The notes: generated by a model not told the origin, from the sequence alone. Positions 4,914 to 20,835 are shown, counted from the first letter of the stretch. The stretch: DNA of 44,066 nucleotides from a phage (GCA_029093145.1 GCA_029093145.1_4347.1), one strand, 5' to 3'. A program made the numbers and translations.

Positions 4914-4940
4914 AAAGGCCCCGCTAGGGGCCTTAGTTTT
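4914..4940. terminator. bidirectional terminator hairpin
   Basis: AGGCCCC-GCTA-GGGGCCT then TAGTTTT; sits between convergent genes. Confidence 0.6.
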
Positions 4941-5592
4941 AACGTATATTAGCCGCACATTTACGCACAACCCGAGGTATCGCCTCTTTCAGTTCACCCC
5001 ATGTATTAACGGCCTCCATGTCAAGAAGCGTCACCAGAGCTTTCTGGATGTCACTTCGCAACTGATTGGTCTTCGCATCCTGAGAGTCCCATGTATCGAA
5101 ACCCGTTACGTCGCGGATATCTACGGATTCCTTTACCGCTTTAGCCACCTGTATGAAGTGTCCACTGTGGCCAATTCTTCCCTCCGTGCGCTCGATCATT
5201 CGACTAACGGCAGCGTTAAGCTCGACAAAGCTCACCGCGCCAATGTTTCGTAGTTCTACCTGCCGTTGTGTGATAAAGCGGTCGATAACGAGGAAATGGA
5301 AATAGGCGCTGTATTGCTCAGCAATATATACTGCCAGATGGAGACATGCAAAGGTGCGACCGTTTCGGCCTTTCGTCGCCCTTATGGCATTCTCGATTCC
5401 GAGTTGTTTTTCGCATTCCTCCTTGAAAATCTTGAAGCCATCCGTTGCCATGACCTGGCGAAGCTCTCTGGCCCCCATGCCGTTGTCTAAACGCCAACGG
5501 TTCATCTGGTCAACCAGCTCGTTTACGTTAATAAAGTTTTCACGGTCAAAAGTGATTTCTCCATAAGGGAACTCTAATGTTTGCAGTTTCAT
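4939..5592 (-). CDS. KilA-N/APSES-type DNA-binding protein (antirepressor-like)
   Basis: N-terminal region resembles KilA-N pattern (INVNELVD ... GRTFACLHLAVYIAEQ); antisense to flanking structural genes; SD AGGAGA. Confidence 0.4.
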   Translation of the reverse strand: MKLQTLEFPYGEITFDRENFINVNELVDQMNRWRLDNGMGARELRQVMATDGFKIFKEECEKQLGIENAIRATKGRNGRTFACLHLAVYIAEQYSAYFHFLVIDRFITQRQVELRNIGAVSFVELNAAVSRMIERTEGRIGHSGHFIQVAKAVKESVDIRDVTGFDTWDSQDAKTNQLRSDIQKALVTLLDMEAVNTWGELKEAIPRVVRKCAANIR

Positions 5593-5648: not shown

Positions 5649-5734
5649 ATCAAGCTCTTTTTAACCTTAAATGCGTATGATTATGCCAATACGTTACCGA
5701 CTGATATGATTGTCATATCGAAACAGGAGGGTAT

Positions 5735-6778
5735 ATGAGCTTACTGACATCACTAATCAGCCACCAGATTTGGCTGCAACGCACCGCATCTGGTGAAGTG
5801 AAAGACCTAGCACCGTTCATTCAGGAGATGCGGGACGAAATAAAACGGCAGGTGCTGTTATTCGGTGACGACGGGCGAAGCACTGCCCGACTGAATAAAT
5901 TGTTACGCGACCTTGAAGAAGCACTGGTGAGGCTTACGGGCGACTGGCAGACAAAGCTGACAGAAGACCTTAAGGAACTGGCGGCGTATGAGGCTGAGTG
6001 GAACGTAAAGACACTGACCGCCAACGTAGACGCGGAATTTGTTACGCCTACCGCTGAGCAGGTATGGGCCGCTGCCGAGTTTCAACCATTATCATTGAGC
6101 GACAAGCCCGTTGATTTCACCAAGCTGATGTCTGGATGGGGTGAAACGGAAGTAGCACGTCTTGTAACTGGAGTTAAGATGGGCTTTGTGCAAGGTCAAA
6201 CCACACGGCAGATTGTTAAGAATGTTGTTGGCGCTGGTGGACTAGCCGACATCTCAGAACGTAACGCGACTACGGTAATCCGCACCGCGCTGTCCCACGT
6301 ATCCAACGAGGCCCGTAACGAGACGTACCGCCAGAACGACGACATCATCGAGAAATATGAGTGGGTGTCAACTTTGGACAGCCGTACCAGCACGATTTGC
6401 AGGGCCAGAGACGGAATGACGTGGGAAATCGGTAAAGGTCCGATGCCACCAGCCCATCCTAATTGCCGGTCGTGCACGGCTCCGGTAATCAGTTCCGAGT
6501 TCGACTTCCTCGATAAAGGCGCAAAACGCGCGGCTAAAGGCGCGGAAGGTGGCACTCAGGTAAGCGCAGACACCACTTACTACGAGTTCCTTAAACAACA
6601 ACCGGCGTGGTTTCAGGACCAGGCGCTCGGCCCGGTGCGAGGTAAGATTTTCCGTAACAGCGGTATATCGCCGGAAGAGTTTCGCGTAATATCTGTAGAT
6701 GGTTTCGGGAATCCGCTCACGCTTAAGCAGATGGCGGAACTCGATAAACGTGTTGCTGATTATCTGAAAGGGGAATAA
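5735..6778 (+). CDS. head morphogenesis protein (Mu F / SPP1 gp7-like, putative)
   Basis: 347 aa ORF after portal with SD AGGAGGG; canonical position of minor head morphogenesis protein. Confidence 0.6.
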   Translation: MSLLTSLISHQIWLQRTASGEVKDLAPFIQEMRDEIKRQVLLFGDDGRSTARLNKLLRDLEEALVRLTGDWQTKLTEDLKELAAYEAEWNVKTLTANVDAEFVTPTAEQVWAAAEFQPLSLSDKPVDFTKLMSGWGETEVARLVTGVKMGFVQGQTTRQIVKNVVGAGGLADISERNATTVIRTALSHVSNEARNETYRQNDDIIEKYEWVSTLDSRTSTICRARDGMTWEIGKGPMPPAHPNCRSCTAPVISSEFDFLDKGAKRAAKGAEGGTQVSADTTYYEFLKQQPAWFQDQALGPVRGKIFRNSGISPEEFRVISVDGFGNPLTLKQMAELDKRVADYLKGE

Positions 6779-7239
6779 TGATGGGCTTTTTCAAAGTAAC
6801 TGACGTACCGTCTCGTCGCGTAGTCCAGTACGCCCGCGTGTCTGGCTCTGGCGAGAACGTGGTATTTATTGGGGACGAAAGTGTACTCGGTACACCGGTA
6901 GATGATATGCCGTTTGCATATAAAACCGGTATTGCGTTGCCCGCCGCCGGTATGCTTTATGAAATTCCGTATCTGGCGGACGCTGGCGACGTGTATTTCT
7001 CTGCGCAACCGCAGGACGCTGAACTGGCGGGCGGCAGCGCAACCATCACTGTCGAGGTTAAGGCAGGCAAAGCGCCGTATTCTCTGACCTGGTACAAAGA
7101 CGGTAAGGAAGTGGTGAATGCGCCTGAGGAGGCTCTGTCTCTGACGGTTAATGCGGTCGGCGAATACTTCGTTAAAGTTACCGATGCCGGTGGCGTAGAG
7201 GCCGTCAGTAAAGCGGCGAAGGTCGCTAAACCAGAATGA
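6778..7239 (+). CDS. Ig-like domain protein (possible capsid/virion decoration)
   Basis: Ig-like motif ATITVEVKAGKAPYSLTWYKDGKEV ... GEYFVKVTDAGG. Confidence 0.55.
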   Translation: MMGFFKVTDVPSRRVVQYARVSGSGENVVFIGDESVLGTPVDDMPFAYKTGIALPAAGMLYEIPYLADAGDVYFSAQPQDAELAGGSATITVEVKAGKAPYSLTWYKDGKEVVNAPEEALSLTVNAVGEYFVKVTDAGGVEAVSKAAKVAKPE

Positions 7240-7242
7240 TAA

Positions 7243-7270
7243 AAGGCCCCATTAAGGGGCCTTAGTTTTC
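7243..7270. terminator. terminator hairpin
   Basis: AAGGCCCC-ATTA-AGGGGCCTT then AGTTTTC. Confidence 0.6.
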
Positions 7271-7472
7271 AACGGAATCTTGTGTTTAAATCCTGCTCAT
7301 GGACAACCCTCAGAACAGTGTCATAATCCTCGTATCTTCCAGGTTCAAATATATCTAATGCCTTGTAAGCAGACATTGCGTCAGGGAAAACCTGCAGAAC
7401 CTTTTTAACCCGGCACAAGTCACCGTCGAACTCTTCATCGAACTCTTGAACTACTTCGCAAATTGCATACAT
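7269..7472 (-). CDS. small acidic hypothetical protein (67 aa), antisense moron
   Basis: Own promoter (7500-7528) and SD AGGAGGTGA; D/E-rich. Confidence 0.5.
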   Translation of the reverse strand: MYAICEVVQEFDEEFDGDLCRVKKVLQVFPDAMSAYKALDIFEPGRYEDYDTVLRVVHEQDLNTRFR

Positions 7473-7499
7473 TTTTCACCTCCTGTTTAAGTTAACTGA

Positions 7500-7528
7500 A
7501 TAGTACCCTATTATATTGGGGTGTGCAA
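7500..7528 (-). promoter_or_regulatory. class B promoter TTGCAC-N17-TACTAT with embedded AATAG-N4-CTATT dyad
   Basis: On minus strand TTGCACACCCCAATATAATAGGGTACTATTCA; near-identical copies at 16744-16772, 40040-40068, 41236-41264. Confidence 0.5.
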
Positions 7529-7580
7529 ACTATTTATTTACGTATTCCAGTTATTCCACCGAATTGTAAATGTTGGAATA

Positions 7581-7596
7581 AACTATTCGAATAGTT
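7581..7596. promoter_or_regulatory. perfect 16-bp palindrome AACTATTCGAATAGTT
   Basis: Self-complementary; half-site ACTATTC matches the promoter-associated motif. Confidence 0.4.
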
Positions 7597-7800
7597 GACT
7601 TTTCACTAAAAATATGATAAGCTCCACCTGAGCTTGTGAAGTATGAACAAGCGACCGCGGCGCGGGCAGGTAACGGAGCGGGACGTAAGTCCTGAGTGTA
7701 GTTACGCTGACGCGTTCGGAAGGGCCATACTCTATTGCTTGTGTAAAAAGTAACTGGTTTACTGAGATTACGCCGTTTCTATGTTTAAATGATAAGGACT

Positions 7801-7830
7801 AGCGCCCCGCTTTATGGCGGGGCTTTACTT
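7801..7830 (+). terminator. terminator-like hairpin upstream of spanin genes
   Basis: AGCGCCCCGC-TTTATG-GCGGGGCT followed by TTACTT. Confidence 0.4.
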
Positions 7831-7848
7831 ATCGAGAAAGGGGGAAAC

Positions 7849-8235
7849 ATGAATCTTAAAGCAACTGTCGTAGCAGGAGCATGTTTCATCATCCTGGCTT
7901 ACGCACACGGCATCTACCAGTACCGCAGCGGCTGGAGCGAAGGCCGGGCGAATCTCGTTTCGCAGCAACAGCAGAAAGCGCAGGCTGAGTTAGCGAAGAA
8001 AACACAACGGCAGCAGCAGGACGAATCAAAGGCCGCAGCCGCTGGCAACGAAGGCAAGACGAAATCAGAGGTGATTACCCGTGAAGTCGTTAAGTACATT
8101 AAAACACCTGGCCGTAGCGTGTGCACTTTTGACCCTGAGCGCGTGCAGCTCAAGTCCCGCGCCGTCGCCAACGCCAATTCCATCCCCGGATACGACGATG
8201 ATGCAGCCGCCGTGCAAACTGGCGCAGCCAAGTAG
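7849..8235 (+). CDS. i-spanin (Rz-like)
   Basis: N-terminal TM segment VVAGACFIILAYAHGI then Q/A/K-rich coiled-coil-like region; SD GGGGGAA; an overlapping lipoprotein gene in +1 frame. Confidence 0.55.
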   Translation: MNLKATVVAGACFIILAYAHGIYQYRSGWSEGRANLVSQQQQKAQAELAKKTQRQQQDESKAAAAGNEGKTKSEVITREVVKYIKTPGRSVCTFDPERVQLKSRAVANANSIPGYDDDAAAVQTGAAK

Positions 8236-8344
8236 CGACGCTGACGAAGATTTGGCTATCGACGTTCAGAATGCCGAATGTGTACGGCAACTGAGACTGA
8301 AAGTGTTCATGTTGCAGGATTACGTGAGGAATATTCTGGAATAG
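8081..8344 (+). CDS. o-spanin (Rz1-like lipoprotein), overlapping the Rz-like gene
   Basis: Signal peptide with lipobox LTLSAC followed by proline-rich segment PAPSPTPIPSP; embedded/overlapping in alternate frame of Rz-like ORF. Confidence 0.55.
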   Translation: MKSLSTLKHLAVACALLTLSACSSSPAPSPTPIPSPDTTMMQPPCKLAQPSSDADEDLAIDVQNAECVRQLRLKVFMLQDYVRNILE

Positions 8345-8426
8345 TTGCCTTGCATGTTGGGATAATTTATTCTTGACATGTAAATCCGGGTGGCCCGGAT
8401 TCCAACGTCCAGGGGACATACTGACT

Positions 8427-9128
8427 ATGAATCGTTTTTTACGTTATCCGTTCCAGGAAGAAGCTGGAGCAGAAGATAAAGCTGGTGGCGGTGACGCGCC
8501 GAAAATGTTCACCGCTGAAGAAGTTCAGGTGCTGATTGAGAAAGAAGTTGCCGGGCTTAAGGCTAATCAGGAAGCATTGTTGGCGGAGAAGAAAGAAGCC
8601 GCTCGCAAAGCAAAAGAGGCCGAAGAAGAACGGCAGCGCGCGCACCAGGAGGCGTTAAAAGCCGCTGGTAAGATGGATGAGTTCGAAAAGACGATTCGTA
8701 GCCAGTATGACCCGGTGTTAGCCGAGAAAGACGGTCGCATCTCCAGAATGGCAGAGCGTATCCTCGGCAGCGAACGTAAAGCGGTGCTAGGCTCTTTCGC
8801 GGGTGACTTTATTACCCCAGAAGCAGTGGACATTCTTGCGCCGTTCGTTAAGACTGAGTTCGAAGGCGATGATGTGGTTACTAAGTTTGTTGGTGCAGAC
8901 GGTAACGTAATCACGACTGACCCGGAACAGTTCCGCAAATACCTGCGCGAACACAAGGCGTTTTCGCATTTGATCAAAGCAAATGCAGCTTCCGGCGGCG
9001 GGGCTTCCGGTAGCAAAGGCGGCGGGGCCGCACCAGCGTTTAAAGACATGAGTGAAGCAGAGCGTTTAGCCCTGTATAAATCGAACCCTGCCGAATTTGA
9101 ACGGCAACTTAAAGCCCTGAGGAAATAA
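8427..9128 (+). CDS. scaffolding protein (putative)
   Basis: Charged, alanine/glutamate-rich coiled-coil-like ORF directly upstream of major capsid gene (track ORF opens at 8373). Confidence 0.6.
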   Translation: MNRFLRYPFQEEAGAEDKAGGGDAPKMFTAEEVQVLIEKEVAGLKANQEALLAEKKEAARKAKEAEEERQRAHQEALKAAGKMDEFEKTIRSQYDPVLAEKDGRISRMAERILGSERKAVLGSFAGDFITPEAVDILAPFVKTEFEGDDVVTKFVGADGNVITTDPEQFRKYLREHKAFSHLIKANAASGGGASGSKGGGAAPAFKDMSEAERLALYKSNPAEFERQLKALRK

Positions 9129-9130
9129 TA

Positions 9131-10180
9131 ATGGCAATTACCACTATCGGCGATATCGTAACTGGCAACATCCCGGTCCTGGCGTCTTATATGACCGAGG
9201 ACCCGGTAGAAAAAACCGCGTTCTTCCAGTCTGGTATTCTGACCCCGACCCCGTACGCTGCCGAGATTGCCCGCGGCCCGTCCAACGTCGCTAATATTCC
9301 GTTCTGGAAAGCGATTGATACCTCTATCGAGCCTAACTACTCGAACGATGTATACCAGGACATCGCCACCCCGCGTAACGTGCAGACCGGCGAGATGATG
9401 GCGCGCGTTGCATACCTGAACGAAGGTTTCGGTCAGGCGGATTTGACCGTTGAACTGACCAGCCAGAACCCGCTGCAATCCGTAGCGTCACGTCTGGATA
9501 ACTTCTGGCAGCGTCAGGCACAACGCCGTCTGATTGCTACCGCGCTCGGGCTGTACAATGACAACGTAGCCGCTACCGACGCATACCACGAGCAGAATGA
9601 CATGGTAATCGACGTGTCTGCTACTCTGGGCTTCGATGCGGGCGCGTTCATCGACGCTACCCAGACTATGGGCGATGCTCTGATGGGCAACGGCGGTGAA
9701 GTGCTGGGGGCTATCGCGATGCATAGCTTCGTTTATGCGCAGGCACGTAAGCAGCAGCTTATCGACTTCATCCGTGACGCGGACAACAACACCATGTTCG
9801 CCACCTACCAGGGCTACCGCGTGATTGTTGACGACAGCATGACCGTAGTCGGCACTGGCCCGACCCGTAAGTTCATCTCCATCATCTTCGGCAACGGCGC
9901 TATCGGTTACGGTGAAGGTTCTCCGTCCAACCCGCTGGAATACGAGCGCGAAGCGTCCCGCGGCAACGGCGGCGGCGTTGAAACCCTGTGGACCCGTAAG
10001 ACCTGGTTGCTACATCCGTTTGGTTACAGCTTCACCAGTGCAGTAATCACTGGCAACGGCACCGAGACTACCCCGCGCTCTGCTTCCTGGCAGGACCTGG
10101 CGAACGCCTCCAACTGGAACCGTGTGGTTGACCGCAAGCACGTACCGATTGCCTTCCTGGTAACTGGTGTCGGTGCTTAA
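9131..10180 (+). CDS. major capsid protein
   Basis: 349 aa ORF after scaffold, followed by strong UUCG-loop terminator. Confidence 0.75.
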   Translation: MAITTIGDIVTGNIPVLASYMTEDPVEKTAFFQSGILTPTPYAAEIARGPSNVANIPFWKAIDTSIEPNYSNDVYQDIATPRNVQTGEMMARVAYLNEGFGQADLTVELTSQNPLQSVASRLDNFWQRQAQRRLIATALGLYNDNVAATDAYHEQNDMVIDVSATLGFDAGAFIDATQTMGDALMGNGGEVLGAIAMHSFVYAQARKQQLIDFIRDADNNTMFATYQGYRVIVDDSMTVVGTGPTRKFISIIFGNGAIGYGEGSPSNPLEYEREASRGNGGGVETLWTRKTWLLHPFGYSFTSAVITGNGTETTPRSASWQDLANASNWNRVVDRKHVPIAFLVTGVGA

Positions 10181-10195
10181 GGTTAAGCTATAATC

Positions 10196-10224
10196 GAGAG
10201 GGACTTCGGTCCCTCTTTTCATTT
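10196..10224 (+). terminator. rho-independent terminator after capsid gene
   Basis: GAGAGGGAC-TTCG-GTCCCTCT followed by TTTCATTT. Confidence 0.7.
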
Positions 10225-10241
10225 ACTAAGAGGATTCCTAA

Positions 10242-10583
10242 ATGGTAGACGTATTGAAGCGACGTATCACCGGCGTCTCCGCTGACGCCCCGGGCGCTAA
10301 GATTGACATGGCGACTATTTCTCCTGCGTCTTTCTCTTCCGCGCTGGCGGCTACTACCGCAGTGACCACAGGTGAAACTATGACGCTGACCGTAACGGTA
10401 GCCGGTGGTCTGGAGCCATATTCTTACCAGTGGTATAAGAATAACAACGCCATCGCCGGGGCTACCGCAGCTACCTATGCTAAAGCATCGACCACTGCCG
10501 CCGACTCCGGTACGTATAAAGTGGTTGTTCACGATGCGTATGGTAATATTATCTCCAGCAGCACTGTAGCAACTGTGTCTTAA
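10242..10583 (+). CDS. Ig-like domain protein (head decoration candidate)
   Basis: Ig-like motif LTVTVAGGLEPYSYQWYKNNNAI ... SGTYKVVVHDAYG; SD AAGAGGA. Confidence 0.5.
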   Translation: MVDVLKRRITGVSADAPGAKIDMATISPASFSSALAATTAVTTGETMTLTVTVAGGLEPYSYQWYKNNNAIAGATAATYAKASTTAADSGTYKVVVHDAYGNIISSSTVATVS

Positions 10584-10588
10584 TACAG

Positions 10589-10604
10589 CGGCCCTTCGGG
10601 GCCG
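10589..10604 (+). other. stable GC hairpin with UUCG-type loop, no U-tract
   Basis: CGGCCC-TTCG-GGGCCG immediately after decoration gene. Confidence 0.4.
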
Positions 10605-10619
10605 TAATAAGGAAAGGTC

Positions 10620-10799
10620 ATGGCAGATAATTATGTAATCCGTGAAAAGTACACCCACGTTGATATTGTAGACGGTCAGGTGATGCCTGTTCGCGGTGTG
10701 GTAGAAGCGGATGAACTGGTTGCGACTCAACCGGACAACGAAGAAGCGCACAACAACGGCGGTGGTGCTAAGCGTCGTCGCCGTAAATCAGAGGAATAA
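10620..10799 (+). CDS. hypothetical small protein with basic C-terminus (59 aa)
   Basis: Hand-translated ORF with SD AAGGAAAGG; ends GGGAKRRRRKSEE. Confidence 0.35.
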   Translation: MADNYVIREKYTHVDIVDGQVMPVRGVVEADELVATQPDNEEAHNNGGGAKRRRRKSEE

Positions 10800-10802
10800 T
10801 TT

Positions 10803-11315
10803 ATGCCGCTAATCGTGGAAGACGGGTCGATAGTACCTAACGCCGACAGTTACATTAGTCTGGCTGACGCCCGCGCGTTAGCGGCTAATTACGGTCTTGA
10901 GTTACCCGCAGACGATACTGCCGCAGAGGTGGCACTGCGCAACGGTGCTACTTATGTCGGGCTTGCAGAACCTCAGATGTGTGGCCACCGCGTATCCGCC
11001 GAGCAGTCCCTGGCGTACCCCCGCACCGGCGTTACGTTAAACGGGTTCCCGGTGGTCAACAACGCCATTCCGAAACAGGTGATTCTTGCGCAGGTAATCG
11101 CTGCCGCTACATATGGCGAGGGCACCGAAGTCCGGGCTAACTCAGACGGTCGCGCCGTGCAGACTGAGCGTGTCGAGGGTGCAGTAACAGTGACCTACTT
11201 CAACAATGGCAACAGTGGCGCTACGACCGCGATTACCGCTGCTGACGACGCCTTACGCCCGTTACTGTGTGGTGGTCTTAACAACGGCTTCTCATTTAAT
11301 GTGTACCGGGGTTAA
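10803..11315 (+). CDS. head-tail connector/adaptor protein (putative)
   Basis: Position between capsid genes and tail genes; 170 aa. Confidence 0.45.
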   Translation: MPLIVEDGSIVPNADSYISLADARALAANYGLELPADDTAAEVALRNGATYVGLAEPQMCGHRVSAEQSLAYPRTGVTLNGFPVVNNAIPKQVILAQVIAAATYGEGTEVRANSDGRAVQTERVEGAVTVTYFNNGNSGATTAITAADDALRPLLCGGLNNGFSFNVYRG

Positions 11316-11317
11316 AA

Positions 11318-11932
11318 ATGGCGAAGACTAAAACAGAGATATTTACCCTTATCGGTTCAGAGCTACCTGACAACACAACAGGGCTTATCACACCAGCTAA
11401 ATTACGCGGCGTACTTACACAGATGGCCGACTCGCCTATTTACGCCACTCCGGGTGTTAAAGAGGTTGAAGTTCTCCGCGCTGCGTCTACCGTAATACAA
11501 GCGCCAACAGCGACGAACACGGCGTTGCAGTTAACTTTTGGCTCCGCTCAGGGAAGTACATCTGACCCGGTAATGATTAATGCCGCAGGGCTTGTTACGT
11601 TCAACACCGCTGGTAACTACGCCGTTCGCATCAAGTTACAGGCGGGTCGCACAGGGGCGAGTGGTACATCAATCCTTTTATCACGCATTCTCCTTAACGG
11701 CGCCCAGTACGGCTCACCCGCCGCCACGAAACTGGTAAGCGCGGACACCACAATCCCGATTGAATCTCGCGTCGTTATCAATCCTACCGCAGGTCAGACG
11801 TTTTCCGTGCAGATTATGCGGGATAGCGCCGGAAGCAACTTCGGTGGCGTATACCCGCAAGCGGCTACTGTAACTGCATGGGGCACGGCACCGTCCGCGC
11901 TACTGGTTATTTCGAGACTGGAGGCTGCCTGA
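11318..11932 (+). CDS. hypothetical structural protein
   Basis: Tightly packed in head-tail joining region; beta-rich composition. Confidence 0.4.
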   Translation: MAKTKTEIFTLIGSELPDNTTGLITPAKLRGVLTQMADSPIYATPGVKEVEVLRAASTVIQAPTATNTALQLTFGSAQGSTSDPVMINAAGLVTFNTAGNYAVRIKLQAGRTGASGTSILLSRILLNGAQYGSPAATKLVSADTTIPIESRVVINPTAGQTFSVQIMRDSAGSNFGGVYPQAATVTAWGTAPSALLVISRLEAA

Positions 11933-12291
11933 TGAGCACTGCTTTCAGTAAACGTATGCAAGGCGTGGGTACACGCCTGCTAACCAAATTCGGTAGCACG
12001 GTATCTCTGATTCGCGCTGGCTCGAAAGTGTGGGATGAAGTTCTCGGTGAGTACGTCTGGTCTGCGGACGAAGTGTTGCCGTTGAAGGCCGTTCCGGTTC
12101 CTGTTAATGCGGGTCTGGTGAACGGTACGACGATTCAGGCTGGTGACATGATTGTTAAAGCCGATTACAGCGTCGTTCCTAAGATGGAAGACAAAGTGCA
12201 ATTCGGCGGCGAGCAATGGTCCGTCGTAGCCATTGAGCAGAAGGTGGTTAACGATGATGTTGTGGCCTACTTTATTCAGGTGAGAAAATGA
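11932..12291 (+). CDS. head-tail joining/closure protein (putative)
   Basis: ATGA overlap with upstream gene (ATG at 11932 within track ORF 11878-12291). Confidence 0.4.
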   Translation: MSTAFSKRMQGVGTRLLTKFGSTVSLIRAGSKVWDEVLGEYVWSADEVLPLKAVPVPVNAGLVNGTTIQAGDMIVKADYSVVPKMEDKVQFGGEQWSVVAIEQKVVNDDVVAYFIQVRK

Positions 12292-12683
12292 GTTTCGCGC
12301 TGGACGTCTCTAAGTTCGTGGAAAAGGCGAAGAAGAACCCTGAGAAGGTGATGCGTCAGGTGTCTATCAAGCTGTTTTCCGCTATTATAAAGGCGAGTCC
12401 GGTAGATACTGGTCGGTTTCGCATGAACTGGATGGCATCTGGCGGTACTCCTGCTTCCGGGATTACGGATGCTACGGATAAATCAGGAAACACAGCAACC
12501 GGAAACGCTACAAGTTTCGTGCTGAAAGCCACCGACTGGCATGAGTTCACGCTGACAAATAACCTGCCGTATGCACAACGGCTGGAGTATGGCTGGTCGC
12601 AACAGGCCCCGCAAGGATTCGTCAGGACTAACGTGTCCCGCTTCCAGCAACTCATTAACGAAGAAGCTAGCAAGGTGAGATGA
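12288..12683 (+). CDS. tail completion/neck protein (HK97 gp10-like, putative)
   Basis: Position and size; overlapping start with upstream gene. Confidence 0.45.
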   Translation: MSFALDVSKFVEKAKKNPEKVMRQVSIKLFSAIIKASPVDTGRFRMNWMASGGTPASGITDATDKSGNTATGNATSFVLKATDWHEFTLTNNLPYAQRLEYGWSQQAPQGFVRTNVSRFQQLINEEASKVR

Positions 12684-13096
12684 TGGGCTACTTTGAGGAC
12701 TTAACAAAAGCGTTTGATGTGCCGCTGGTAGCCTTCGGAACCACCAACGGCATCAAGGTAGCGCTTGAAAACATCGACGCGCCGACGTCAACAGATACGC
12801 CGTATCTGGCAAGTTACATGTTGCTGGCGGATACCGAGCAGGCTGACTTATTCTTCACGGAACAACGCGCCGGTGTCTATCAGATAGACATTAACTACGC
12901 ATCGGTGAAAGGTAGCGCGCCAATCAATAAAATGGCAGACTTACTTAACACGGCGTTTAAATCAGGTAAGGCATTTTCGCGTAACGACATCTGCGCCGAG
13001 GTTCAATCGGTTAGCCTGGGGCCGCTGATTGTAGAAAACGGATGGGCCAAACGACCATTGTCAATTAACTTTATTGCATTCACCAAGAGGCTGTGA
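12680..13096 (+). CDS. tail-associated hypothetical protein
   Basis: Position immediately upstream of major tail gene. Confidence 0.4.
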   Translation: MMGYFEDLTKAFDVPLVAFGTTNGIKVALENIDAPTSTDTPYLASYMLLADTEQADLFFTEQRAGVYQIDINYASVKGSAPINKMADLLNTAFKSGKAFSRNDICAEVQSVSLGPLIVENGWAKRPLSINFIAFTKRL

Positions 13097-13098
13097 AT

Positions 13099-14265
13099 AT
13101 GGCTACAACTCCTTTTAAGGGCGCGAATACCGCGCAATTCTATGTGGCGGAAGTGACCCCGGGCGTAACACCGACTAACCCGGTATGGTCGCCACTGCGT
13201 AACACAGGCGGCGTTCCTGCCATTACCCGTGACACGCTGACCTCCAACGAACTTGACGGCAGCCGAGAAACCACATCCATCCGCACCGGTAACAAGCAGG
13301 TTAGCGGAGAATACGCTATTGAGCTTAGCTCTAAAAGTCAGGACGACTGGTTAGCCGGGGCTTTAGGCTCTACGTGGCAATCCGGCGTTTCCCTGTCAGG
13401 ACTATCGATTACCGTCGCACCCGCGGGCAAGACGTTCACACGCGCTACCGGCAGTTTTATCACTGACGGAGTTGGGGTAGGCGACCTGATTGCGTTTACC
13501 GATTTAACAGGCGATAACGTAAAACCATTTATTGTTACTGCAGTAACGGCTACGGTTGTTACTGGTGCGGGCATCCAACACACCCTGACCACCGAGACAA
13601 AAACTAGTAAGGCTAAAACTGGCGACACGTTGGAAACCGGTAACACGTGTAAGACGTTCTCTATCCTTACCTGGTACAAAGGCCAGTGCGGCGGTACTGA
13701 CGCGTACACGTTAACCAAAGGCGTGGAAGTTTCTGGTTTTACCATCGAACAGGCTGTTAACGCGATGGTAACTGGCAGCTTCCCATTCATCGGTCGCAGT
13801 CAGGAGATTCTCACTACGCCGCCGACCGGTTCCAACTTCTCATCTGTTACTTTTGGTGATGAGCCGTTCTCTTCGGTTGACGTTTCCGTGTTCGACGGCT
13901 CTACGCCGTTGCGTTGCGACAGCCTGACTATCACCAACGATAACAGCGCGTCCGCGCAGTTCGAACTTGGTAACACTAACGTAGCGTTTGTGGAGCGTAG
14001 CCGTGCAGCTAACACATTCTCTATCTCTGGCAAGCTGTACGACATGGCGATGATTCAGAAGTTTATCAACGAGCAGCAGGTAGAGATTAACTCTATTCTG
14101 GCAGGGGTAAACGGGGCTATGTCTTTCAGTTTGAAACGTGCAGAGCTTACGGCGGTTACACCTGAGATTGGTGGGCCTGAGTCAATCACTCAGTCCATTG
14201 AAGGCCAGGCTACCGGCAATCAGTACCAGTCGTCTATCGTAATTCAACGTATCACCTACGCATAA
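13099..14265 (+). CDS. major tail protein (putative)
   Basis: ~388 aa ORF upstream of chaperone/tape-measure region; SD AAGAGG before ATG 13099. Confidence 0.6.
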   Translation: MATTPFKGANTAQFYVAEVTPGVTPTNPVWSPLRNTGGVPAITRDTLTSNELDGSRETTSIRTGNKQVSGEYAIELSSKSQDDWLAGALGSTWQSGVSLSGLSITVAPAGKTFTRATGSFITDGVGVGDLIAFTDLTGDNVKPFIVTAVTATVVTGAGIQHTLTTETKTSKAKTGDTLETGNTCKTFSILTWYKGQCGGTDAYTLTKGVEVSGFTIEQAVNAMVTGSFPFIGRSQEILTTPPTGSNFSSVTFGDEPFSSVDVSVFDGSTPLRCDSLTITNDNSASAQFELGNTNVAFVERSRAANTFSISGKLYDMAMIQKFINEQQVEINSILAGVNGAMSFSLKRAELTAVTPEIGGPESITQSIEGQATGNQYQSSIVIQRITYA

Positions 14266-14296
14266 AACTAAGGCCCCTTTCGGGGCCTTTTTCTTA
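14265..14296. terminator. bidirectional terminator
   Basis: AAAACTAAGGCCCC-TTTC-GGGGCCTTTTTCTT; A-run and T-run on both sides of the hairpin. Confidence 0.65.
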
Positions 14297-14848
14297 CAAA
14301 CCTAATTTTAAAGCAATGTCTATAACGTTCGATTTAACGTCACCCGGTATGATGTAGGTGTCGTAATCTTTTACACCACTAACATCGTACAGATAGCCAC
14401 GGCTATCGCAGATGAACGTATAGCCGTCACGATGGAGGCGGACGATTCGCACGTCATGCCCCGCGGCGACGATAGGGGCAACTTCACTGGCGAATCCACC
14501 ATCGGACACTACAAAAACTTCGTCGCCGTCAGGCAAGTTTTCAGCAAGATACTTACCGAAATAATCATCGCCGAATACCGGTTTAATGAATTGCTCAGAA
14601 ATGGCAATCATTAACCGGCGGCGGGACAACCCATTAAGAAAACCCTCGGGTTTTTCTTTCCGCGCCCGGTCGTCGTAGCCGTCGAGAAATTCGTGGTAAG
14701 CATCCTGGCCTAACGCTGCCAAAGCAATATTGAACATTGGATTCTTGAAACTGGTAGTTCCTTTCGCAAAGCCCATTTCTACCAGCGCCATAGCAAGCGT
14801 GTCTTTCCCGCAACCCGCAGGGCCATTAAGAATAATTACCTTAGCCAT
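14294..14848 (-). CDS. P-loop kinase, dNMP-kinase-like
   Basis: Walker A GPAGCGKDT at N-terminus; SRRRLM segment recalled as typical of T4 gp1-type dNMP kinases. Confidence 0.65.
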   Translation of the reverse strand: MAKVIILNGPAGCGKDTLAMALVEMGFAKGTTSFKNPMFNIALAALGQDAYHEFLDGYDDRARKEKPEGFLNGLSRRRLMIAISEQFIKPVFGDDYFGKYLAENLPDGDEVFVVSDGGFASEVAPIVAAGHDVRIVRLHRDGYTFICDSRGYLYDVSGVKDYDTYIIPGDVKSNVIDIALKLGL

Positions 14849-15336
14849 TATTTATCGCTCCCGTGTGGTTTTAAGTGTGTAGAGTTCCCGTTACAGTCGT
14901 ATTCGGTAACTGCGTGTGCAGTTATGCCGAGGTCACGGAAATGCTTTATTACCGCTGGAGAGTCGTCGAACGCACACAAGATTCTTTCCAGTCCGAAAGC
15001 ACGCAACACCTCTTCTTTAATTACGATGTCTTTTCTGTTGTCGTGTTTGCTGCGCATGATTAGCGTGTCAAACCTAACGTTATTCTCTCGTAACCATTCG
15101 CGAGTCTCCTCCTCAGCGTCATCACTTCGCCCGGTAAGGATAATTATAGTAAGTCCGGAATGCCACAGTACGCTACACAAATGGATATTGTCGTATATCG
15201 GAGCGTCATCTTTGCAGGCCATGTTAAATGGCTTCCACGCCCACGTTTCTCCGTAGTTATCTTTTGGTAACAGGTGTAAGCGATGGGTACCGTCGGCCAA
15301 TGTCCCGTCTAAATCGAAAATTACAATATCTTTCAT
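14848..15336 (-). CDS. HAD-superfamily phosphatase (Pnk-phosphatase / 5'-nucleotidase-like)
   Basis: HAD motif I IVIFDLDGTLA, motif II ILTGR, motif IV AFDDS; overlaps flanking genes by 1-4 nt. Confidence 0.7.
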   Translation of the reverse strand: MKDIVIFDLDGTLADGTHRLHLLPKDNYGETWAWKPFNMACKDDAPIYDNIHLCSVLWHSGLTIIILTGRSDDAEEETREWLRENNVRFDTLIMRSKHDNRKDIVIKEEVLRAFGLERILCAFDDSPAVIKHFRDLGITAHAVTEYDCNGNSTHLKPHGSDK

Positions 15337-16463
15337 CCCAGCATCTCCGGTGAAATAGTTAAACGTGCGACCTCGCCATATTCGGCGCTATAAGTAATTA
15401 CATTTGCACTGCGGCCCGACATCCATCCGCCGCGAGAGGCGTAGGCGTCTTTAGCCGCTAAGGTGCGGTGTTGCTCAACAATCATGTTACGGCTTTCTAC
15501 AATCTTCTGGTGGTGCAGATGGCCTACGTGGGCGTAGCTGTAAACACTCTCGCCGAACGCTTTACGGAACTTGGCAATCATAACCGGTTCGATAGCGTCG
15601 AATCGTGCTTTATGCCCGTGATGGAAGAACAGCGTCGTTTTGCCGTGTTGCACCATCTTGTAAACATCCGGCGACGTATCAACAATCACTCGGCTGTCGT
15701 TTGAGTATAAAACCGTGAACATTTCAGCAAGCCATACGGAGCCAACAGGGTCGTGGTTACCTTGAACGATTAAAAGTTTTACTGTGTGATGCTTAACCAG
15801 CGCCATATCAACAACACGGCGGACCATACGAATCATGTAACGTACCAGTTTCTGATAGCGAGTATCCGCATCTAATACATGGCGCGACTCGGGGGTAACG
15901 GCATCAAGACTATCGAAGTGTGCGAAGTCCCCAAGCAGGTTAATAACTCCTGTTCCTGCATCCGGTGCTTTCTGAAACGCCGCGTCGAACCACCGAGAGA
16001 ACAGGTCTTCTGCAATCTTCATGTCCCAGTCGTCGCCGCTCTCATCGGCCCATGCCAGCATACCGAGATGGAAATCAGATACCGTGTAAAGATTGAGTAG
16101 TTTATCGTCACGTTTGGCGCGCGCCGCTTTAACAGGCGCAACGGGCGTAATCTCTGACTTCATGCCCTCTATTACGGCTTTCATCAATTCAACCTGACGT
16201 TCGGCGTCGGTATCAGTCTTAACCCATTGCAACTTAGTGTTGCCGAACTCGTCCACCAGGGACGACGTTCCTTTAATCTTGTAACCGTCTGGTACAAGGT
16301 GGCTAACGTCGCGCCCGTGGCCCACGCCTTTCTTAGCCAGCTTCGCTTTACGGATACGAATTACGCGGTCTGAGATGCCGTATTTACGGGCGATATCTAC
16401 ATTCTTCATACCGGCGTTCAATTCTTCCTGCAACTGTTCGTCGGTTATTTTCTTCCGGGCCAT
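15333..16463 (-). CDS. HTH-fused calcineurin-like metallophosphoesterase
   Basis: N-terminal HTH-like region; metallophosphoesterase motifs SDFHLG, GDFAHFD, GNHD, HHGH, GHLHH; SD GAGGAA. Confidence 0.65.
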   Translation of the reverse strand: MARKKITDEQLQEELNAGMKNVDIARKYGISDRVIRIRKAKLAKKGVGHGRDVSHLVPDGYKIKGTSSLVDEFGNTKLQWVKTDTDAERQVELMKAVIEGMKSEITPVAPVKAARAKRDDKLLNLYTVSDFHLGMLAWADESGDDWDMKIAEDLFSRWFDAAFQKAPDAGTGVINLLGDFAHFDSLDAVTPESRHVLDADTRYQKLVRYMIRMVRRVVDMALVKHHTVKLLIVQGNHDPVGSVWLAEMFTVLYSNDSRVIVDTSPDVYKMVQHGKTTLFFHHGHKARFDAIEPVMIAKFRKAFGESVYSYAHVGHLHHQKIVESRNMIVEQHRTLAAKDAYASRGGWMSGRSANVITYSAEYGEVARLTISPEMLG

Positions 16464-19987: not shown

Positions 19988-20022
19988 CAAAAAAAAAAAT
20001 AAGGCCCGAAAGGGCCTTATTT
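19988..20022. terminator. bidirectional terminator (A10 / hairpin / T-run)
   Basis: AAAAAAAAAAT-AAGGCCC-GAAA-GGGCCTT-ATTTAT. Confidence 0.7.
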
Positions 20023-20835
20023 ATGCGGAACTTTAGGCTTCACTCCGTCCCTACAAAGGGCCAAAATCTCTGGAATTATCTTAGGGTCTGAGGTTAGCAT
20101 CCACTCCGTGGATCCGTCGAAGCTGCCATAGCCCCACTCATTCGACGCTATTTTGTAAGTGTTATGGAAATACACTTCTAGCATTCGTATTTTTGCGCCG
20201 TTATCGTCGCGATGAATGCCAAGCACTTCGAAACCAAAGGGGGTAGCGTTACGCAGGTGACGTATCCGCTGTTTAGGCCTGTTTGATATCCCTATCTTCA
20301 CGAATCGGCCGCATTCACTAAGTAACGCATAGAGGAACCCAGTTTTATTAGGGTCGTACCCGCTAGAGGCACATCCAGGACATCCTTGATTCTGATGAAT
20401 GATATCTGCTATTCGCTGGCTAAACTCACCATGGATATCGCAAAGCCGCACCGCTTTGCTATACTGATTCTTATACCCTCCTTCGAAGCGCAAGAACTTC
20501 CACTTATCACTCACGGCGTAAATCTGCGAGATGCGTTCCTCCTCTGAGTATGAAGGTCTTCCCGCGCAACTAGGACACCCATGTTCCTTACTAATTGCGT
20601 TAGCTATCAAAGTGTCGAACTCCCCGTGTTCGGGACAGAGCCTACGTACCTTAGAATAGGCGTTTCGATAGCCGTTAGGAAATCCTACAAAACTGTATTG
20701 CGGGGCTACCTTAGCTAGTTCCTCTACTACATTGCTCTCAGGTTTTCGCTGTTTGCTTGATGAAGATTCTTTTCCACACCTAGGGCACCCAATACCTTTT
20801 TTTAATACTAGCGGCCGTTGCCGAGAAAGCCCCAT
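20017..20835 (-). CDS. T5orf172 (GIY-YIG-like) domain protein with tandem zinc-ribbon repeats; homing-endonuclease-like
   Basis: Two repeats Y(R/K)N(A/Q)YSK-(V/A)(R/V)(R/L)C-x2-HGEF ... HGCPxC; C-terminal GFLYALLSECGRFVKIGISNRPKQRIRHL resembles T5orf172; antisense between tail genes. Confidence 0.6.
   Translation of the reverse strand: MGLSRQRPLVLKKGIGCPRCGKESSSSKQRKPESNVVEELAKVAPQYSFVGFPNGYRNAYSKVRRLCPEHGEFDTLIANAISKEHGCPSCAGRPSYSEEERISQIYAVSDKWKFLRFEGGYKNQYSKAVRLCDIHGEFSQRIADIIHQNQGCPGCASSGYDPNKTGFLYALLSECGRFVKIGISNRPKQRIRHLRNATPFGFEVLGIHRDDNGAKIRMLEVYFHNTYKIASNEWGYGSFDGSTEWMLTSDPKIIPEILALCRDGVKPKVPHK

Follow-up and report, generated by a model that had tools for sequence, protein, structure and literature searches.

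The notion that immunoglobulin (Ig)-like domains on phage particles serve adhesion goes back to the binding of mucin by Hoc of bacteriophage T4, a protein in which three Ig domains in tandem are followed by a capsid-binding domain at the C-terminus. Ig-like domains of phages are usually free of cysteines. The auxiliary protein gp12 of phage SPP1, for its part, is a collagen-like trimer and not an Ig protein. Here we describe two Ig-domain proteins, p1 and p2, encoded at 6778–7239 and 10242–10583 of a 44,066-nucleotide stretch of phage DNA (GCA_029093145.1_4347.1; "the window" in the following, to whose full length all coordinates refer). Both open reading frames (ORFs) are present exactly where a preliminary description, drawn from the sequence alone, had located them, and each carries the Ig-like pattern reported there. 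p1 and p2 are probably accessory proteins of the virion surface, each combining an N-terminal anchor with a single cysteine-free, I-set-like Ig domain for weak adhesion to glycans. The parts of this reading differ in strength: confidence is high that both are Ig-domain accessory proteins of the virion, moderate for a location of p2 on the capsid shell, lower for p1 at the same place, and low to moderate for glycan adhesion through the Ig domains, a function suggested by analogy. Both proteins belong to recognized families that are already named Hoc-like or capsid decoration proteins in near-identical genomes, and they constitute an ordinary, already known feature.

Single-Ig-domain proteins p1 and p2

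p1 (153 amino acids, plus strand) contains the stretch GKAPYSLTWYKDGKEV…VGEYFVKVTD and p2 (113 amino acids, plus strand) the stretch GLEPYSYQWYKNNNAI…SGTYKVVVHD. A strict form of the motif, PY[ST]-x(1-2)-W[YF]K-x(15-35)-G-x-Y-x-[VC], is found at two places across the six translated frames of the window and in none of 200 shuffled versions; a looser form occurs on average 0.05 times per shuffle and never twice (200 shuffles). When a hidden Markov model (HMM) built from both domains is run against the 376 stop-to-stop segments of at least 50 amino acids, only p1 and p2 are found, the next-best match having an expectation value (E) of 0.8; this six-frame search yields no third Ig copy elsewhere in the window. 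A Pfam scan of the tail proteins returns Phage_tube_2 alone and no Ig domain. The preliminary description had assigned the Ig-like feature to the whole range 6778–10583. This holds for the genes at its two ends, both of which are Ig-bearing, but the Ig sequence is limited to residues ~75–150 of p1 and ~36–113 of p2, and the ~3 kb between them consist of unrelated genes.

p2 (11.5 kDa, cysteine-free) matches the family phrog_4069 over its full length (residues 1–113 against positions 1–116 of 116; E 1.7e-51) and exceeds the Pfam gathering scores of Ig_2 (32.6; threshold 27), Ig_3 (32.0; threshold 30), and I-set (24.6; threshold 23.7). Its best single-domain sequence match is pb10 of phage T5 (8zvi_a; E 1.3e-13, 53.7 bits). 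The protein is composed of an N-terminal arm of ~35 residues (residues 1–35; 10242–10346) and one Ig-like domain (residues 36–113; 10347–10580) that is close in sequence to the Ig domain of pb10. AlphaFold2 (AF2) models residues 37–112 as a six-stranded β-sandwich of moderate confidence, with a mean predicted local distance difference test score (pLDDT) of 66, and the Foldseek matches of the model—pb10, Hoc, and proteins of N4 and Moo19—are Ig folds throughout, none of them with E ≤ 0.001. The arm, proposed to bind the capsid, has no Pfam match and is modeled as disordered in isolation (pLDDT 36–59); its residues 1–13 and 21–32 are largely conserved within Kagunavirus and into Jerseyvirus.

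p1 (16.1 kDa, acidic, cysteine-free) likewise matches a family over its full length, phrog_3945 (residues 2–153 against positions 1–152 of 152; E 3.7e-83). Its N-terminal domain (residues 1–74; 6778–6999), the proposed virion anchor, is a β-rich orphan fold and the more conserved half of the protein. It has no relative in Pfam or the PDB, and among 1.84 billion representative proteins it has about eight real relatives, all of them p1-type proteins of this phage group and several of them fragments; one short p1-type relative possesses a different C-terminus. The remaining matches of this domain, to cadherin, Big_6, and Flg_new repeat proteins, are weak and were taken as spurious. The C-terminal half (residues 75–153; 7000–7236) stays below all Pfam Ig gathering scores (Ig_3 23.0, E 1.2e-4, threshold 30; I-set 15.3, threshold 23.7; Ig_2 13.6, threshold 27), and the Ig membership of p1 therefore rests on comparisons of profiles, models, and structures. 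Residues 83–142 align with the p2 family in hhalign (probability 96%, E 2e-9), and the Ig regions of p1 and p2 are 38% identical over 58 amino acids (BLASTP 1e-6). The AF2 model of p1 displays a β-sandwich with strands at 87–150 and a block pLDDT of 73–88 over residues 81–153, for which Foldseek gives a probability of 1.0 against Ig domains. The best structural matches in the PDB are the capsid decoration proteins of Moo19 and N4 as well as T5 pb10, and matches in BFVD include entries named "Decorating protein", "Outer capsid protein", and "Hoc"; a further lead from BFVD, "p21" of phage MB78, came to nothing. Structure prediction, put forward as a check in the preliminary description, thus results in a β-sandwich with Foldseek matches to Ig folds for both proteins, and it is confirmed that p1 and p2 each carry a genuine single Ig-like domain.

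Both genes lie within the head module, as had been proposed. p1 abuts a MuF-like (SPP1 gp7-type) head morphogenesis gene (5735–6778, plus strand; Pfam Phage_Mu_F 3.6e-13, phrog_241 2e-154), and p2 starts 61 nt 3′ of, and in a different reading frame from, the gene for a major capsid protein of the HK97 fold and SPP1 gp13 type (9131–10180, plus strand; PDB 4an5/6r3a, SPP1 coat protein, 7e-44; phrog_247 4e-120). The region 5700–12300 is matched by Kagunavirus phages, Escherichia siphophages of the subfamily Guernseyvirinae, with 92–95% identity and 96–99% coverage, among them vB_Ec_DUEC01 and the BASEL phages Bas70-76, while hundreds of Salmonella Jerseyvirus genomes constitute weaker matches. 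The 44-kb window thus represents a genome of Kagunavirus (Jersey-like coliphages), with the gene content of a complete genome of this type.

Homologues of p1 are found in 489 and those of p2 in 458 phage records, nearly all of them from Kagunavirus or Jerseyvirus; a small number of phages of Serratia and Enterobacter also possess p1, and many metagenomic contigs of 40–45 kb carry p1/p2 homologues. Within the Guernseyvirinae, the two are core genes retained by nearly every member. Both phrog_3945 and phrog_4069 are named "Hoc-like head decoration", a family name that represents annotation and not an experimentally derived function. Public names for near-identical proteins are inconsistent, comprising Hoc-like head decoration, capsid decoration protein, tail protein, fibritin, neck whiskers protein, and tailspike; these mixed names rest on no experiment found in this analysis, and the papers on fBC-Eco01 and the BASEL phages contain annotation only.

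The ratio of nonsynonymous to synonymous substitution rates (dN/dS) is 0.08–0.09 for p1 and 0.10–0.15 for p2; purifying selection of this strength indicates that both are real genes, and gene-wide positive selection is not seen in either (dN/dS ≤ 0.15). In comparison with the Jerseyvirus T102, p1 and p2 are 66% and 61% identical, respectively, versus 94% for the capsid protein, 89% for the scaffold, 81% for the portal, and 79% for the MuF-like protein, which makes them the fastest-evolving proteins of the head module; on the receptor side of the tail, the J-like tail protein and the N-terminus of the tailspike are similar to them in this respect (57–61%). The N-terminal domain of p1 is more conserved than its Ig domain in three comparisons (72 versus 60% for T102, 64 versus 54%, and 57 versus 37%). 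When the sequence is compared with Bas76 and DUEC01, the final 300 nt of the MuF-like gene and the first 210 nt of p1 contain 2 differences in 510 nt, and the remaining 249 nt of p1 contain 36; synonymous divergence is 0 upstream and 0.81 downstream of this point. A recombination junction, as read from these alignments, is located at the anchor/Ig boundary of p1 (window position 6988, codon ~70), that is, at the 5′ edge of the Ig domain. Differences in p2 are concentrated in codons 30–90. Such a pattern would be expected of a constrained anchor bearing an exposed, exchangeable module. A recent duplication within the genome is ruled out as the origin of the pair: the Ig domain of p2 is nearer to pb10 (53.7 bits) than to the Ig domain of p1 (about 23 bits), so that the two domains are not recent duplicates.

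Placement on the virion and rival explanations

The virion location, copy number, and ligand that we infer for the two proteins combine into the following model. p2 would be made from its own ribosome-binding site, and a hairpin at 10196–10217 may lower the level of its transcript. The 35-residue arm of p2 is likely to attach to the outer face of the SPP1-type capsid lattice, with the Ig domain pointing outward in the manner of T5 pb10 and T4 Hoc. p1 would share a transcript with the gene of the MuF-like minor head protein, to whose translation its own would be coupled, and might dock through its 74-residue β-rich domain on the capsid lattice or on a portal-proximal region. The exposed Ig domains could then provide weak, multivalent, and non-essential adhesion to polysaccharides, either host O-antigen or capsule or the glycans of mucus, and thereby make an encounter with a host more likely. 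As far as the results bear on it, the interpretation given in the preliminary description, accessory surface decorations with weak adhesion to carbohydrates, is supported.

A comparison with Serratia phage Eta bears on the binding partners. Eta has the same morphogenesis module, with a capsid protein that is only 38% identical. In the slot after its capsid gene, p2 is replaced by an unrelated charged protein of 93 amino acids (gp52, 9512–9793), perhaps a decoration or accessory protein of another kind that suits the capsid type of Eta. p1 is retained with 54% identity, next to 62% for the portal, 64% for the MuF-like protein, and 64–83% for neck and tail genes. The loss of p2 where the capsid protein has diverged supports its binding to the capsid protein, and its natural absence from Eta shows that p2 is not indispensable to the morphogenesis module common to both phages. 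p1 tracks the portal and MuF-like proteins and not the capsid protein, and its partner is perhaps portal-proximal rather than part of the capsid lattice; both partner readings are drawn from this one comparison.

Published virion data concern the homologues in T102, whose GenBank record lists the p1 homologue as ORF17 ("neck whiskers protein") and the p2 homologue as ORF22 ("putative Hoc protein"). In CsCl-purified T102 particles, 26 of the 29 ORFs with an annotated function were represented by peptides, the exceptions being ORFs 5, 45, and 54 (PMC10194226). Since only these three lack peptides, ORF17 and ORF22 would, by implication, have been detected. Several points weigh against the model. 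The T102 sample also contained endolysin peptides (PMC10194226), which indicates low specificity and makes detection weak evidence for presence in the virion. In the literature, no cryo-electron microscopy structure or clean virion proteome of Kagunavirus, Jerseyvirus, or any other member of the Guernseyvirinae was found that places p1 or p2, and a paper from 2026 terms the subfamily structurally uncharacterized (PMC13243795). The proteome of Eta was obtained from gel bands of at least 38 kDa only (PMC3918226) and is consequently silent on proteins of 11–16 kDa. Both AF2 models are of moderate confidence (pLDDT 73 for p1 and 66 for p2), and the summed sequence scores of p2 are highest against tail tube proteins with 3–4 Ig repeats (9ncf_S, 9c2d_S). 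Finally, p1 is coupled to the minor head protein and is kept beside the portal and MuF-like genes in Eta despite a capsid protein of 38% identity, two observations that would suit a partner outside the capsid lattice.

Attachment of p1, p2, or both to the portal vertex, the neck, or the tail instead of the shell is unlikely, but still to be reckoned with; it would concern mainly p1, possibly as a low-copy protein near the portal. The names tail protein, fibritin, neck whiskers protein, and tailspike would fit such a location, as would weak matches of both proteins to PDB 9occ ("putative neck whiskers protein gp24"), the similarity of the p2 Ig domain to the Ig repeats of tail tube proteins, the position of p2 at the boundary between head and connector genes, and the association of p1 with the MuF-like and portal genes rather than the capsid gene in Eta. 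However, no experimental basis was found for these names, which coexist with "Hoc-like" and "capsid decoration" for near-identical proteins, and when single domains are compared, pb10 surpasses any tail repeat as a match for p2 (53.7 bits versus 46.4 or less). The similarity to tail proteins is confined to the Ig domain, which is shared promiscuously by head and tail proteins, and p2 is gone in Eta together with the capsid swap while the neck and tail genes stay 64–83% identical. A cementing role, that is, mechanical stabilization of the capsid comparable to that by λ gpD or trimeric clamp proteins, with the Ig fold being incidental, is improbable. Proximity to the capsid gene speaks in its favor, as do the strongly conserved N-terminal anchors, but neither protein resembles cement proteins of the gpD/SHP or β-tulip type, the sole recognizable fold being the single Ig domain, and the Ig domains of p1 and p2 evolve fast and recombine, unlike a load-bearing clamp. 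It also counts against cementing that pb10 is not known to stabilize T5 capsids and that Hoc is dispensable.

In other phages, Ig domains are reportedly appended by frameshift, as Fraser and colleagues are said to have described in 2006, and p1 lies in the −1 frame relative to the MuF-like gene in the window, in T102, and in fEg-Eco06. Programmed frameshifting or readthrough to yield MuF–p1 or capsid–p2 fusions, of a kind described for some tail and head proteins of phages, is nonetheless highly improbable at this locus: p1 and p2 are each equipped with a start codon and a Shine-Dalgarno sequence of their own, just 18 nt are open in the p1 frame 5′ of its ATG (CTGAAAGGGGAATAA) and include no X-XXY-YYZ slippery heptamer, the frame relation differs in Eta, in which a gap of 10 nt separates the MuF-like gene and p1, and the 61 nt between the capsid gene and p2 contain in-frame stops and a hairpin. 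A chance resemblance to the motif, or ORFs that are not genes at all, can for practical purposes be dismissed. Only the position of p1 below every Pfam Ig threshold points in this direction, whereas the absence of the strict motif from 200 shuffles, dN/dS values of 0.08–0.15, hundreds of conserved homologues, and the agreement of hhalign, AF2, and Foldseek on an Ig fold point in the other.

The preferred reading of p1 and p2 as accessory surface proteins can be extended to a more specific, and rather doubtful, version with different docking sites. p2 would occupy the capsid lattice and p1 a site at or near the portal vertex beside the MuF-like protein, both sockets being fixed while recombination exchanges the Ig modules precisely where anchor and Ig domain meet. 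If true, two sockets and a variable third gene for a head fibre (see below) would render the Guernseyvirinae head a modular, host-range-relevant adhesion surface and not a passive decoration. For annotation, the gain is that both genes can be described as encoding single-Ig-domain virion accessory proteins; beyond such housekeeping, the significance is slight. Kagunavirus and Jerseyvirus phages are popular for therapy and biocontrol, and exposed Ig domains would be candidate sites for adhesion to mucus or polysaccharides and for display engineering.

Gene neighborhood

At the junction of the MuF-like gene (347 amino acids) and p1, the TAA stop and the ATG start share one base (TAATG, read from the sequence), and the p1 start is preceded by the Shine-Dalgarno sequence AAAGGGG. 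Minus-strand genes flank this pair on both sides. One of them, at 4939–5592 between the portal and MuF-like genes, matches phrog_6095 ("amidase", lysis category; E 9e-121); its insertion leaves the MuF-like gene and p1 as a two-gene unit surrounded by convergent and divergent genes. Directly 3′ of the p1 stop, a G+C-rich, terminator-like hairpin (7243–7263), which the terminator scan flagged on the minus strand and whose strand we leave unassigned, closes both this unit and a convergent minus-strand ORF (7269–7472). A rho-independent terminator is annotated at the matching position in Eta, and the record of fBC-Eco01 has a terminator feature beneath the p1 match. Between the capsid gene and p2, a second hairpin (10196–10217, plus strand; GAGAGGGAC-TTCG-GTCCCTCTT, 9 bp, followed by a T-rich tail) is terminator- or attenuator-like. 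These terminator calls are consensus matches, and the region as a whole has no excess of terminator-like sites over shuffled sequence. A strong Shine-Dalgarno sequence, AAGAGGA (10228–10234, plus strand, read from the sequence), lies 7 nt 5′ of the p2 ATG, so that p2 is translated independently and not as an extension of the capsid protein.

The MuF-like minor head protein of fEg-Eco06 (502–2439) contains an inserted, annotated intein and measures 645 amino acids, versus 347 in the window; the length of the phrog_241 profile, 679 positions, is probably due to this intein. That length had hinted at MuF–p1 fusions, which find no support: p1 has no phrog_241 match, and the long protein of fEg-Eco06 contains the intein.

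The ~3 kb that separate p1 and p2 accommodate a minus-strand ORF of 67 amino acids, Rz/Rz1 spanins, the scaffold, and the major capsid protein. The Rz/Rz1-type pair (7849–8235 and 8081–8344, with Rz1 inside Rz) lies inside the head module, after p1 and before the scaffold gene; T102 has its holin and lysozyme genes far from this position, and the spanin arrangement is alike in the relatives examined.

In 396 phage records, comprising most of those from Jerseyvirus and about one in two of those from Escherichia/Kagunavirus, the capsid gene is separated from the p2 homologue by a gene for a "head fibre" or "head protein" of 95–99 amino acids. Its product has a conserved N-terminus and a coiled-coil C-terminus (fEg-Eco06 5900–6199; 12415–12699 in another relative), and in some records only the first 24 residues are common, the C-terminal part being different, which suggests another protein of the anchor-plus-module type. 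The gene is missing from the window, in which the capsid gene and p2 are separated by the gap 10181–10241.

Farther downstream, the genes for the Ad1 adaptor and the neck proteins flank one for a protein of 204 amino acids (11318–11932). This protein matches phrog_3614 (unknown function), has weak matches to BclA_C and a podophage fibre protein, is 73–77% identical in T102 and Eta, and could be a neck or collar appendage. In the segments 14294–16463 and 20017–20835 (minus strand), the tail module is split between the tube and chaperone genes by minus-strand genes of nucleotide metabolism that encode a deoxynucleoside monophosphate kinase-like protein, a polynucleotide kinase-like protein, and a DNA repair exonuclease, and an HNH endonuclease gene follows the tape measure gene.

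Comparison with known Ig-domain proteins

The arrangement of an accessory gene beside the capsid gene is shared with SPP1, in which gp12 is the auxiliary protein on gp13 hexamers, and the capsid protein encoded in the window is gp13-like (E 7e-44); gp12 and p2 have no sequence relation, and the analogy is positional only. Siphovirus tail tube proteins with Ig repeats (PDB 9c2d_S, 9ncf_S; compare the C-terminus of λ gpV) match p2 with E-values of 1e-29 to 1e-32 over 3–4 repeats and contain the same cysteine-free Ig subtype. Their repeats are covalently fused to the tube, whereas p2 is a free-standing protein of 113 amino acids encoded beside the capsid gene, and the tube protein of the window (13093–14265) has no copy of the p1/p2 Ig domain.

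Among decoration proteins, gp17 of N4 (PDB 9e99/9lbz) and its counterpart in Shigella phage Moo19 (9d7z) are the best Foldseek matches of p1 in the PDB (E 1e-4 to 3e-4, probability 1.0) and also match p2 by sequence (1.8e-5 and 6e-4). Both are multi-domain proteins of 270–280 amino acids, and with TM-scores of only 0.4–0.46 and a large root-mean-square deviation over two domains, their likeness to p1 is essentially that of the Ig fold. Hoc of T4 and RB49 (PDB 3shs), dispensable and equipped with I-set-type Ig domains on the capsid, matches p2 with an E-value of 0.014 and 31% identity in Foldseek. Its architecture is not that of p1 and p2, which possess one Ig domain each and an N-terminal non-Ig part; "Hoc-like" accordingly refers to the domain and not to orthology.

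The closest characterized relative is pb10 of T5 (PDB 5lxk, 8zvi). Several differences exist: the T5 shell has T=13 geometry and a single Ig protein, whereas the window combines an SPP1-type capsid, a 44-kb genome, and two different Ig proteins; the capsid-binding N-terminal domain of pb10 is matched by neither p1 nor p2, all sequence and Foldseek matches being to the Ig domain; and this domain is folded in pb10, while p2 merely has a 35-residue arm. Residues 14–108 of p2 align with residues 57–152 of pb10 (E 1.3e-13; 1.1e-12 against 5lxk; 37% identity in Foldseek) in an alignment spanning the signatures GG-x-PY-x-Y-x-W-x-K and D-x-G-x-YKV-x-V-x-D. For p1, the E-values are 0.006 (5lxk) and 0.014 (8zvi_a), with residues 84–144 aligning with residues 87–150 of pb10. 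p1 and pb10 share the same layout, in which an N-terminal domain of ~75–85 amino acids precedes an equivalently placed C-terminal Ig domain, and p1 and p2 resemble pb10 as small, monomer-sized, putative accessory proteins of a siphovirus head.

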